IMG/VR virus record: IMGVR_UViG_3300044844_000928
Source: a virus
Length of the DNA: 64,000 nt
Direction: 5' to 3' (one strand)
Below are positions 45,057-52,195 of the stretch, in pieces (position 1 is the stretch's first letter; each line of letters opens with the position of its first letter). Below the pieces are notes generated by a model. The model was not told where the DNA came from, did no database searches, and worked only from the letters and a program-made list of their open reading frames with translations. The position numbers were made by a program, and so were the translations under genes.

Positions 45057-45085
45057 TTTACTTTATTGTGTAAATAAATTATAAT
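45057..45085 (+). promoter_or_regulatory. Sigma70-type early promoter for the ncRNA/tRNA cluster
   Basis: TTTACT-17-TATAAT with an A-rich UP element. Confidence 0.75.
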
Positions 45086-45109: not shown

Positions 45110-45727
45110 TTTTGGTAGCCTAGTCGGTTTGGATCGGGGTTACTATCAAAATTGGAAGCACTACCAATTAAAAGTGGCAAATGTATGTTCTGCGGAAAGC
45201 CTTAAAGCACAAAAAAGAACTGACAGTTTGGAAAGACAAACATTATGAAGCATAAGTATTACATTCTAGTCGGGTTTGTGGTCGTACTAGGCAGCACATG
45301 TAACTCCGTAAATACTTATGACTTGATAGTTGATGCGTAGGCTGATACGCACCGATGTGATGTAAGAGGGGAATAAGGCTATACGTTAATCCTTATTAAG
45401 CTGGAGTTCAGCGCCGGTAACTATCAATCTCCTTAGCCTGCTGGGAGAATAATAAGGCAGGAGTGTACCGAACCAGCTTGTGCACAGCGAGTGGACTGGT
45501 GACAGCTTGGAAAGACAAGCACTATGAATGATTGGTATTGTGCCGAGCGTGAAGATGCCCACTAGATAAGCGTGAGACTTGTAAAATCCCGCCAGTATCA
45601 ATGATTGATAGTTATTGCGTAGGCTGATACGCGCGGGAATTGACATCGCTTAATTGAACAGGGGAGCATACTAGGTTGCTCACTGGCAGAACCTTCTGCA
45701 AGCCGGAGATCAGCACCGGCAACTATC
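45110..45727 (+). ncRNA. Cluster of putative structured ncRNAs (two ~280-nt tandem units)
   Basis: No credible ORF, GC-richer than flanks, repeated scaffolds with compensatory changes (see findings). Confidence 0.75.
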
Positions 45728-45736
45728 TAAATTTAA

Positions 45737-45810
45737 GCGCCTTTAGCATAATTGGTTAATGCCGCGAACTCATAATTCGTAAGATCGGGGTTCGAGTCCC
45801 TGAGGGCGCA
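45737..45810 (+). tRNA. tRNA with CAT anticodon (Ile2 or elongator Met); CCA not encoded
   Basis: GCGCCTT/AGGGCGC acceptor stem, GCGAA-CTCATAA-TTCGT anticodon arm, GTTCGAG T-loop. Confidence 0.88.
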
Positions 45811-45916
45811 AAATTTTATATTAAATAAGTGTAGTTAGGTTGATATTCCCGTACCAACCAACTCAGTTACGGATTACCGAGCTGTCCTACACAAATTTAT
45901 ATATACGGATAAAAAT

Positions 45917-46615
45917 ATGTTCTACTTAGTTTATAAAATCACAAATAATATAAATCAAAAATATTATATTGGGTGTCATAAAACTACTAATGTTGATGAT
46001 GGGTATATGGGTTCTGGTGTGCTAATAAAAAGAGCAATATCTAAGTATGGAATAGAAAATTTCACTAAACAGATATTACATTACTGCTCAACTTCTGAAG
46101 AAATGTTTACTAAAGAATTTGAATTAGTTACTATTACAGAACAATCTTATAATTTAAAACTAGGTGGAAACGGCGGGTTTAACTATATTAACACACATAA
46201 TCTTAATAAACCAGAAAATTGGTGTTTAGAATCTGTTATTAGACACAAAAAAGGTTGTAAAAAAGGCGGCATTAAAAATAAAACTTTAGGTACTGGAATA
46301 TTTGGATTATCTTTTAAACAAAAATCTGAAATTGGTAAAAAGGCAAATGCAGCTACCCAATTAAAATTAATGGATACTATAGGATATAAATCTGTATTTG
46401 GTATATTAAACAAAGATGAAGAATTCCAATTAAAAAGAAAGGCTAAATTTTGTGAAATAGACCACCAAAAAGGTAATAAAAATTCACAATATGGCACTAT
46501 GTGGATTACAAATGGCGAATTTAATAGTAAAATTACAAAAGGATTAGATTTACCAGATGGGTGGATATTAGGCAGAAAAATTGGATTGCCATCTATTAAA
46601 ATTAGTTTAAAATAA
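45917..46615 (+). CDS. Seg-like GIY-YIG homing endonuclease
   Basis: YLVYKITN..N.KYYIG.H..Y.GSG..E; YNLK.GG; YGTMWITNG; sits in a tRNA cluster like T4 segB. Confidence 0.85.
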   Translation: MFYLVYKITNNINQKYYIGCHKTTNVDDGYMGSGVLIKRAISKYGIENFTKQILHYCSTSEEMFTKEFELVTITEQSYNLKLGGNGGFNYINTHNLNKPENWCLESVIRHKKGCKKGGIKNKTLGTGIFGLSFKQKSEIGKKANAATQLKLMDTIGYKSVFGILNKDEEFQLKRKAKFCEIDHQKGNKNSQYGTMWITNGEFNSKITKGLDLPDGWILGRKIGLPSIKISLK

Positions 46616-46722
46616 TGTTGCGGCAGTAGGTCAGCTCCGCGTTAAAAACCGAAATAACCAAACTGATGTTGTATTGTGGCGATAGGCTAGTCCCACGTTA
46701 AAAACTGAAATAACCAAACTGA
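46616..46722 (+). repeat. Tandem pair of hairpin plus A-rich tail units
   Basis: CGTTAAAAACYGAAATAACCAAACTGA occurs twice, each behind a covarying stem (GCGG/CCGC and GTGG/CCAC). Confidence 0.8.
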
Positions 46723-46809: not shown

Positions 46810-46884
46810 TCCATCTAACGCACAAGGTGTGCGACCGGACTGTTAATCCGTGTGAGCGCGATTCGATTTCGTGAGATGGAGCCA
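46810..46884 (+). tRNA. tRNA-Asn(GTT)
   Basis: TCCATCT/AGATGGA acceptor, CGGA-CTGTTAA-TCCG anticodon arm, TTCGATT T-loop, GCCA end. Confidence 0.85.
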
Positions 46885-47119: not shown

Positions 47120-47878
47120 ATGTCAGCTACAATTGAAACTGTAAAAGCAGAAGCTAAAGAATCTTCACTTTTGAATAAAAAAGCTATGCTATTTGGTGCG
47201 TCATTATATATTGTGTTTTATGGATGGGTTCGTTGGTATGAAGGGGTTTACGGGTGGTCTGCTGGTTTAGACTCGTTTGCTCCAGAGTTTGAAACATACT
47301 GGATGAACTTCTTATACATAGAAATGGTTTTAGAGGTATTAACCGCGTCAATTTTATGGGGTTATATCTGGAAAAGTCGTGATCGTAAAGTGATGTCAAT
47401 CACACCACGTGAAGAATTGCGTCGTCATTTCACACATTGGGTATGGTTGGTAATGTACGGTATCGCAATTTATTATGGAGCATCATATTTTACTGAACAA
47501 GATGGTACATGGCATCAAACAATTGTTAGAGATACCGACTTTACTCCAAGTCATGTTATTGAGTTCTATTTAAGTTATCCGATTTATATTATTACTGGTG
47601 TTGCTTCGTTTTTATATGCTAAAACTCGTTTACCAACCTACCAAAAAGGCTTACCATTACAATATATGGTATCTGTAATTGGTCCATTTATGATTCTTCC
47701 AAACGTAGGTTTGAATGAATGGGGTCACACTTTCTGGTTTATGGAAGAATTGTTTGTTGCTCCTTTGCATTATGGATTTGTATTTTTTGGCTGGGCGGCT
47801 TTAGGCGTATTGGGCGTTGTTAATATCGAAGTAAAAGCAATTGCTAACTTATTGAAAAAAGACTTAGCTGTAGCATAG
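47120..47878 (+). CDS. pmoC: Particulate methane monooxygenase subunit C (auxiliary metabolic gene)
   Basis: GWSAGLDSFAPEFETYW; EQDGTWHQTIVRDTDFTPSH; PNVGLNEWGHTFWFMEELFVAPLHYGFV; ATG at 47120 behind a GGAG RBS. Confidence 0.98.
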   Translation: MSATIETVKAEAKESSLLNKKAMLFGASLYIVFYGWVRWYEGVYGWSAGLDSFAPEFETYWMNFLYIEMVLEVLTASILWGYIWKSRDRKVMSITPREELRRHFTHWVWLVMYGIAIYYGASYFTEQDGTWHQTIVRDTDFTPSHVIEFYLSYPIYIITGVASFLYAKTRLPTYQKGLPLQYMVSVIGPFMILPNVGLNEWGHTFWFMEELFVAPLHYGFVFFGWAALGVLGVVNIEVKAIANLLKKDLAVA

Positions 47879-50868: not shown

Positions 50869-52107
50869 TTACTGGCAATTGATTGGTATCCCATATTCTT
50901 TTACGAAATTTTTATCTAGGTAAATATTTATGTTTTTGTCAATTCTATAAAATTTAATCCTATTTCCATTTGGTGTAAATAATTTTACGTGTATAGTATC
51001 ATCGTAATCATTTGGATGTATATCTAATAATGATTTTAGCTGTGTGTGATAAACTATAATGCATTTATTTTTGGTTGGATCATAATCAAAATATCCAGGA
51101 GGATTTGGGCACATTTTATTTACAAATTTAAACTTCCCATTAATATCATATTTTCTAATTCCAATATTTCTTGATACAAACGGTTGTATGTGGTGTGCAT
51201 TAATATCTAATGGGTCTATCATTTCAAATTGATTAGATAAAATATTATAAAACAATGTAGAATAATTTTTTTCTTTATAGCGGCGCAGACGTTTTCTTTT
51301 TTCTGGTGTTAATACTACAGCTGGATATTTTTTTGATTTACGAGTTGCTGATATTTTAGCACCTATACGTTTCTTGTGCTCATTTGATCTATTTGCCCAT
51401 ATTTTTGTAACAATGTCACTTAAAATTTGTTTTGATTTTGTTATTGTCCAACCATCAAATAAAAGACGTTCGTATTCATCTGAATACTTAAACACTTCTA
51501 TTTCATTTTGCTCATAGTATAATTTTATTTTTGTGGTTTTTGAATGATAGCATTTCAGACTTGTTGATGTTAATTCTTTAGATGTTTCTGTTCTTGGTTT
51601 ATATGTTCTGCCTGTTGACATTGATACAAATTCTTTAGATACAACTCTAGGATCTGTTACTGAGCAATAAAATATAGCTCCATTGTTGTCAATATACGCG
51701 GCTTTACCTTTAGTGGATGTAGAACAATTTTGTGAAAATTCTATTTTAAAATTTTCATAAATTTTTGAATGTACATTATATGTGCGTTTTCTTGAATCTT
51801 TTGGCGATTGTTTGTTGCACATTGCCCAAAAGGCAAAAATTTGTGATCCTTTGTATGTTTTTGCTAATAAGTAATGAGCAATATAATGTTGTCGGTGTGT
51901 TAAATTTACAGCGTTCCATTTATTTGATTTGAATGATGCATATTCAGGAAAAAGATCATTTGCCTTTGGACAAATGTGATGTTTTTGTGTCTTATATTTT
52001 ATTGGAGGTTGATTGACATAATTTGATATAAATTTTATATATCTATTAAGATAATGTTGATTGTGTGGTTTGCTTGATAATATGGTATAAATACTTGTGC
52101 TGGTCAT
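50869..52107 (-). CDS. Putative HNH homing endonuclease (Mob-like)
   Basis: HHICPK...N.V.LT.RQHYIAH.LL; start at MTSTSIY (52107). Confidence 0.78.
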   Translation of the reverse strand: MTSTSIYTILSSKPHNQHYLNRYIKFISNYVNQPPIKYKTQKHHICPKANDLFPEYASFKSNKWNAVNLTHRQHYIAHYLLAKTYKGSQIFAFWAMCNKQSPKDSRKRTYNVHSKIYENFKIEFSQNCSTSTKGKAAYIDNNGAIFYCSVTDPRVVSKEFVSMSTGRTYKPRTETSKELTSTSLKCYHSKTTKIKLYYEQNEIEVFKYSDEYERLLFDGWTITKSKQILSDIVTKIWANRSNEHKKRIGAKISATRKSKKYPAVVLTPEKRKRLRRYKEKNYSTLFYNILSNQFEMIDPLDINAHHIQPFVSRNIGIRKYDINGKFKFVNKMCPNPPGYFDYDPTKNKCIIVYHTQLKSLLDIHPNDYDDTIHVKLFTPNGNRIKFYRIDKNINIYLDKNFVKEYGIPINCQ

Positions 52108-52195
52108 GGTAGATCCTTTTATCGATAGAATGATTAGTGCCACTGGGATGTAGGAGTCCGCGAGTGGCTTTTTTTGTACAAAATATTTAGTAAAA
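52085..52195. repeat. Nuclease-associated cassette, copy 3
   Basis: Same scaffold, here attached to an HNH gene. Confidence 0.9.

Follow-up and report, generated by a model that had tools for sequence, protein, structure and literature searches.

We examined a window of 64,000 nucleotides from the virus record IMGVR_UViG_3300044844_000928, which encodes UvsW, the gp45 clamp and the gp44 loader and derives from a T4-like phage. An intact, stand-alone pmoC lies at 47120-47878 (plus strand), ~150 nt 3′ of the last tRNA gene, with long hairpins between the two. Since its top bacterial matches fall in the Methylococcales (78-80% identity), we regard the phage as a pmoC-phage of the kind already known (PMC7674155). 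The RNA array studied here is placed between a promoter-like site and tRNA-Met (Table 1). The promoter named in a first-pass annotation of the window holds as a motif match, but sites of this type are not over-represented in the region (15 against 11.2 ± 3.6 expected). Two endonuclease genes are found nearby. A GIY-YIG homing endonuclease (45917-46615, plus strand) sits inside the tRNA cluster, as does T4 segB, directly preceded by a branched long hairpin (45817-45905, plus strand, z -3.2), and a homing/HNH endonuclease of 424 amino acids (50869-52143, minus strand) adjoins phoH.

Table 1. Features of the RNA cassette array and its flanks (window coordinates)
Feature	Position	Strand	Details
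Candidate sigma70 / T4-early-type promoter for the RNA-tRNA operon	45057-45085	+	10/12 motif match; kept in near relatives L100, L151
Two leader hairpins	45113-45169	+	Predicted folds; linker-like heptamer at 45142-45148
Cassette a1	45221-45249	+	TGAC lead-in, 4-bp covarying stem, then linker X′
Cassette b1	45250-45321	+	RNase III-type closing stem (arms 45250-45260/45311-45321), 50-nt interior, 3/6 consensus elements; same b1 in L100, L151
Predicted 3′-strand cut in b1	after 45321	+	RNase III register
Cassette c1	45323-45428	+	P1 45323-45331/45419-45427, P2 45335-45350, cargo 45351-45399, P3 45400-45418; P2/P3 loops kiss
Two-hairpin segment travelling with a2 as a block	45429-45499	+	Fold; 5′ of a in L084, L021, L207, L197
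Cassette a2	45500-45528	+	Second copy of the a hairpin
Cassette b2 (type B3)	45529-45604	+	RNase III-type stem (arms 45529-45539/45594-45604), 54-nt interior, 4/6 elements
Predicted cut in b2	after 45604	+	RNase III register
Cassette c2 (cargo type C6)	45605-45727	+	P1 45607-45613/45721-45727, P2 45617-45632, cargo 45633-45701, P3 45702-45720; fold z = -3.2
tRNA-Met(CAT)	45737-45810	+	9 nt 3′ of c2; first tRNA of the presumed co-transcript

The first-pass annotation had described two tandem units of ~280 nt in which the same three modules recur in order around interiors that do not align. The recurrence is real, and both halves of c, module a and the arms of b could all be located: the copies of a are spaced 279 nt apart and are 83% identical over 40 nt, the 5′ halves of c (45323 and 45605) agree at 93% over 28 nt and the 3′ halves (45398 and 45700) at 86% over 28 nt. 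The interiors cannot be aligned, as claimed. This two-copy repeat is far beyond chance, because both window copies of c reach 77-79 bits under a covariance model, which also gives 61-74 bits to copies it had not seen, from HK620, phage P1 and HK629. The ~280-nt unit itself, however, is no conserved entity, since cassettes a, b and c are exchanged separately, and the array is better read as six cassettes, a-b-c-a-b-c, that have one linker pair in common as their joint.

The family of cassette c is widespread, with 205 distinct copies and no Rfam match, and includes copies from phages P1 and HK620 and from N4-like and jumbo phages. Three helices covary in it. The fold runs from the P1 helix, in most copies 7-9 bp long, through a short linker, hairpin P2, the cargo and hairpin P3 to the 3′ strand of the P1 helix. 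Across 30 aligned copies 99.4% of cells were paired (25-48% in slid controls), a figure inflated by the choice of these copies with a pattern that required pairing in the P1 helix and P3. The real evidence for the fold is the variety of compensating pair types: all seven P1-helix pairs and four of the five P3 pairs show compensatory change, so the covariation across homologues whose absence the first-pass annotation had named as refuting is present. The 9-nt loop of P3 pairs with the loop of P2 in a loop-loop kiss. When variant P2 loops were searched for and the copies then parsed with both loops free, 22 of 31 variants proved to be compensated in P3 (four types), with two wobble and seven uncompensated cases. 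The topology of c is that of a tRNA in which the cargo replaces the anticodon arm. To this extent the earlier description as tRNA-like is apt, but c is not itself a tRNA, having no T-loop consensus, anticodon or CCA and being missed by ARAGORN and by the Rfam tRNA model (RF00005).

A 16-nt core of c was found in >119 viral contigs and in >120 stretches of bacterial genomes, mostly from Proteobacteria. Cultured phages with c include P1, HK620, HK629, mEp460, Magnus, ZC03 and Xoo-sp13; these copies were found with a short-cargo copy as query, and BLAST of the window array against cultured phages returned a tRNA match only. Of 5426 E. coli genomes, 1345 contain matches to the b-c-b stretch of phage P1; the stretch carries no annotation there except for the adjoining tRNA. 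The 189 distinct cargoes of c, 24-242 nt long, fall into 146 unrelated families, 119 of them singletons. No partner protein travels with c, the largest neighbour family being present at 10 of 200 loci, and a protein-guided RNA array of the CRISPR or TIGR type was rejected for want of a dedicated effector gene.

Cassette a is a hairpin whose 8-nt loop, GGAAAGAC, is invariant across 16 stem types, with TGAC in front of the stem and the linker behind it; the hairpin is similar to a boxB-type protein-binding loop. In unrelated phages it often lies ~85-230 nt upstream of c, which makes the a-b-c order a general one. Cassette b is a long stem. Such a stem is present 5′ of c at 75% of loci (37% in a lenient control), and the distal-box motif occurs in 55 of 167 b stems against 1 of 167 controls. 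We scored the stems on six elements of the E. coli RNase III consensus, in which distal-box and proximal-box pairs are set in a helix of 11 bp (PMC1540722). Windows with at least four elements concentrate at offsets 21 (40/80) and 20 (14/85), with 0-11% elsewhere, a family-wide register that fits the bacterial RNase III substrate consensus and places the predicted cut at the foot of the P1 helix of c. All six elements are found in the b cassette of phage P1 and five in that of lambda; the window stems hold three and four elements of a consensus that is E. coli's and may not be that of the methanotroph enzyme. Host RNase III probably separates the cassettes, and by extension from the family may do so in the window phage. 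The earlier proposal of a processed array gains strong support from the family-wide register and from lambda, and is a prediction for the window phage.

The lambda b cassette lies directly 3′ of tR′. Its predicted new ends, counted along the late transcript, fall at +209 and +270, giving a product of 61-62 nt. RNase III reportedly cuts this RNA at positions 209 and 270. Sites for the enzyme were mapped in the late RNA of lambda in a 1988 paper (Daniels 1988, PMID 2849240). LPR2 is a lambda sRNA seen as a single ~63-nt band during lytic growth, bound to Hfq, with PreS and fliC as its only reported partners (bioRxiv 10.1101/2024.10.31.621285). The published northern probe for LPR2 is the exact complement of the interior plus 3′ arm of lambda b, which at the level of sequence identifies the cassette as the LPR2 locus; the text of that paper gives no ends. 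LPR2 maps to a cassette of type b whose closing stem has the register also seen in the window, and the window b cassettes combine the features seen in LPR2, namely a long closing stem, a linker held in common with the next cassette and the conserved register. LPR2 differs in having been published as a single RNA without a family and in its unrelated interior. A covariance model scan found no cassette c in lambda, so the LPR2 evidence covers b only. For the LPR2 interior and the PreS seed, as defined by mutants in the same preprint, we predicted a duplex of -33.8 kcal/mol (p ~0.007). This pairing is suggestive only, since it ranks second among 965 lambda chunks and does not exceed the best shuffles genome-wide.

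Relatives with the window's linker were parsed into 20 b, 12 c and one further cassette type, which form 41 distinct junctions and include all four B3/B12 × C2/C6 combinations. Alignment breakpoints fall in scaffold or linker in 113 of 145 cases, these blocks covering 37% of the arrays; since every cassette is bounded by scaffold, some of this excess is to be expected. The nearest phages (L100, L151) have a1 and b1 in common with the window (98.7%), and the cargo then switches inside the c scaffold. The c1 cargo recurs in L084 with a different b in front, the c2 cargo follows other b types in L047 and L058, and b2 is found in L017 before a different c. Phages P1 and mEp460 likewise carry a common c cargo behind different b cassettes and, as both are cultured, mis-assembly is an unlikely source of the shuffling. 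Comparison of the arrays shows that recombination at shared linkers and scaffolds reshuffles the cassettes. The conserved scaffolds with swapped interiors first described from the window are found again in the covariation, the compensated kiss and the exchange of cassettes among relatives.

It had also been suggested that the interiors carry specificity. The capacity of the LPR2 interior to pair with the PreS seed agrees with this, but the window interiors gave no target in the window: exact-match searches with the cargoes, own pmoC included, returned nothing above shuffles. A duplex scan of the window gave one c2 match exceeding 25 shuffles, which was not counted because it lies on the non-coding strand of a homing endonuclease gene and was one of six tests. 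Antisense matches between cassettes stayed at null level, and one c1 segment had nine scattered matches in 151 Methylococcales genomes against four for the control, none of them conserved. At 45356-45370 the c1 cargo is exactly antisense to part of T4 rnaD (L120 1068-1082), with 15 perfect nucleotides plus further blocks, 0 of 1000 shuffles as good and no second such match among 81 cargoes, and this rnaD segment is also kept in a T4 relative. The match was noticed post hoc and may be due to chance; homologues of rnaD are confined to enterobacterial T4-like phages.

We propose that the locus is a polycistronic array of small-RNA cassettes, presumably transcribed with the phage tRNAs. Each cassette consists of a conserved fold around a variable cargo and is joined to its neighbours by one complementary linker pair, so that every b stem overlaps at its base with the helix that closes the following c. 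Host RNase III, as known in lambda, would cleave the b stem; this would free b RNAs of ~71 and ~75 nt and leave c with a new 5′ end at the base of its P1 helix. Cassette c folds into a tRNA-shaped elbow, with ~12-14 bp in P1 and P3 together and the kiss standing in for the D/T-loop contact, and this fold would stabilise and display the cargo as an engineered tRNA scaffold does. Unrelated phages exchange cassettes by recombination within the linker blocks and the 28-nt scaffold blocks. The cargo would act in trans as an anti-sRNA or sponge, most likely one that pairs with regulatory RNAs of the host or of phages or mimics them. We consider such antisense or sponge action the best explanation, with a probability of about 0.5; the modest scores of the window b stems and the lack of a target for the window cargo count against it.

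The cassettes might instead be processed in the same way and serve as structural decoys or aptamers for proteins, candidates being tRNA-cutting or RNA-sensing defence enzymes, toxins with RNA antitoxins, and RNA chaperones. T-loop arms are enriched in the b interiors (7/91 against 1.3 expected), several b cassettes are broken cloverleaves, and a tRNA gene is located no more than 1 kb from 33 of 230 c loci, in 31 cases on the same strand. Some cargo families retain stems and T-loop-like motifs that fit protein binding better than antisense. In a few, blocks of sequence and stems persist between distant hosts; one of these families reaches from methanotroph phages to an enterobacterial prophage and is carried on two scaffolds. 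Most c cargo, however, folds barely above shuffled sequence (mean z -0.48), c has no partner protein, and the sole member with data, LPR2, is Hfq-bound with RNA partners, and we find a decoy role rather doubtful. It is unlikely that the cassettes act only in cis, either by directing the processing and stability of the tRNA or late mRNA that follows or as an antitermination-type leader with interiors of tolerated junk: although they often lie directly 3′ of a terminator or tR′, hairpin a recalls the boxB loop and most cargo families are singletons, the same cargo is found nearly unchanged in unrelated backbones, moved as a unit, LPR2 accumulates as a discrete RNA, and a kiss-locked scaffold would be superfluous for a cut site. 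Selfish or neutral DNA modules, with the conserved blocks as seams for recombination and an RNA structure that only renders inserts harmless, would fit the concentration of breakpoints in the scaffolds and the GIY-YIG gene in the same tRNA cluster, but are improbable, as no mobility protein is linked and compensatory change, seen in helices P1 and P3, in the kiss and in hairpin a, lowers DNA homology while keeping the RNA fold.

The cassettes were also compared with known RNAs. In the window and 47 locus scans, the Rfam check proposed earlier (Rfam 15) gave no gathering-score match on a, b or c, YrlA, C4, tmRNA, ribozymes, GOLLD and ROOL included; at gathering score and at E 10 we saw tRNAs, plus STnc100 and isrJ adjoining cassettes and never on them. 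The suggested link to T4 RNA species C and D was not upheld. These RNAs (species 1 and 2, rnaC and rnaD) are likewise stable phage RNAs in a tRNA cluster, but have a different scaffold and no homology, and were rejected as members of c by the covariance model, which had no match in L120 or L128. The C4 RNAs of P1/P7, the CI antisense RNA of P4 and engineered tRNA scaffolds all present exchangeable specificity sequences on a tRNA-shaped frame; the cassettes differ from them in having no Rfam match, no cis target that could be found and a predicted release by RNase III, not RNase P. By eye, STnc100 (RF02076)/PasD resemble c in their closing helix, AAT linker, 5′ hairpin, variable middle and 3′ hairpin, and they occur in the same arrays, but their hairpin loops differ from those of c, and RF02076 has no match in the window even at E 10. 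They are prophage sRNAs with different seeds on one fold (PMC8550237; bioRxiv 10.64898/2026.05.13.724894). Pas sRNAs were rejected as module c, as the motif was not found in EPEC E2348/69, where Pas RNAs were defined, or in K-12. The prophage anti-sRNAs AgvB and AsxR (PMC4104026) resemble the cassettes in combining a conserved frame with a variable specificity part and in being encoded 3′ of pR′; they differ in their length of 51-60 nt, variable 5′ end and final terminator, and the window has no Rfam match to them. The searchable literature, of incomplete coverage and with relevant sources outside the search, held 0 matches to the cassette motifs. As far as checked, the system as a whole is undescribed and its parts have precedents (LPR2, STnc100/PasD, anti-sRNAs).

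The cassette family spans phages from lambda to viruses of methane oxidisers, mixed and matched. It provides a common grammar for stretches that look "empty", both 3′ of pR′ in lambdoid phages and within the tRNA clusters of phages, and ties a processing site of 1988 and a lambda sRNA of 2024 to a family across proteobacterial phages. We suggest, tentatively, that tailed phages share an RNA-only, integron-like cassette library, with excision by a host nuclease, a natural tRNA scaffold, swapping by recombination and varied antisense or decoy payloads that might be aimed at host regulation, host defence or rival phages. The function of stable phage RNAs becomes testable by standard genetics in lambda, P1 and HK620, and the kiss-locked scaffold, which tolerates inserts of 24-242 nt, could serve as a frame for RNA display or expression.

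Several further elements were observed in these arrays. In enterobacterial arrays the linker is CACAACA (L454 1289-1296; L158 1313-1320), different from that of the window; with CACAACA the anti-sRNA AgvB uses the consensus of GcvB seed targets (PMC4104026). More cassette types with the same linker pair occur at L454 1358-1442 and L158 1590-1650 and in L021, L058 and L233, one of them directly follows lambda b, and one type has a cargo related to C2. Klebsiella phage Magnus (L155 2200-5360) has ~3 kb of stem-closed RNA cassettes before its tRNA cluster, annotated as tiny hypothetical proteins. Downstream of c, the arrays of L017, L033, L058, L074 and L093 all contain a small element that resembles an H-type pseudoknot and has an A-rich loop; it had no Rfam match in the loci scanned. 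In the window, a second tandem pair (46618-46722, plus strand, spacing 56), made of a small hairpin with a conserved A-rich tail, is probably a further cassette type or a small pseudoknot; its motif also occurs in L100, L197, L001, L063 and L097. A cloverleaf at 46810-46884 (plus strand), with anticodon GTT, encoded CCA, a 3-nt D loop and a fold z of -2.5, was missed by ARAGORN and Rfam and is probably an atypical tRNA-Asn.
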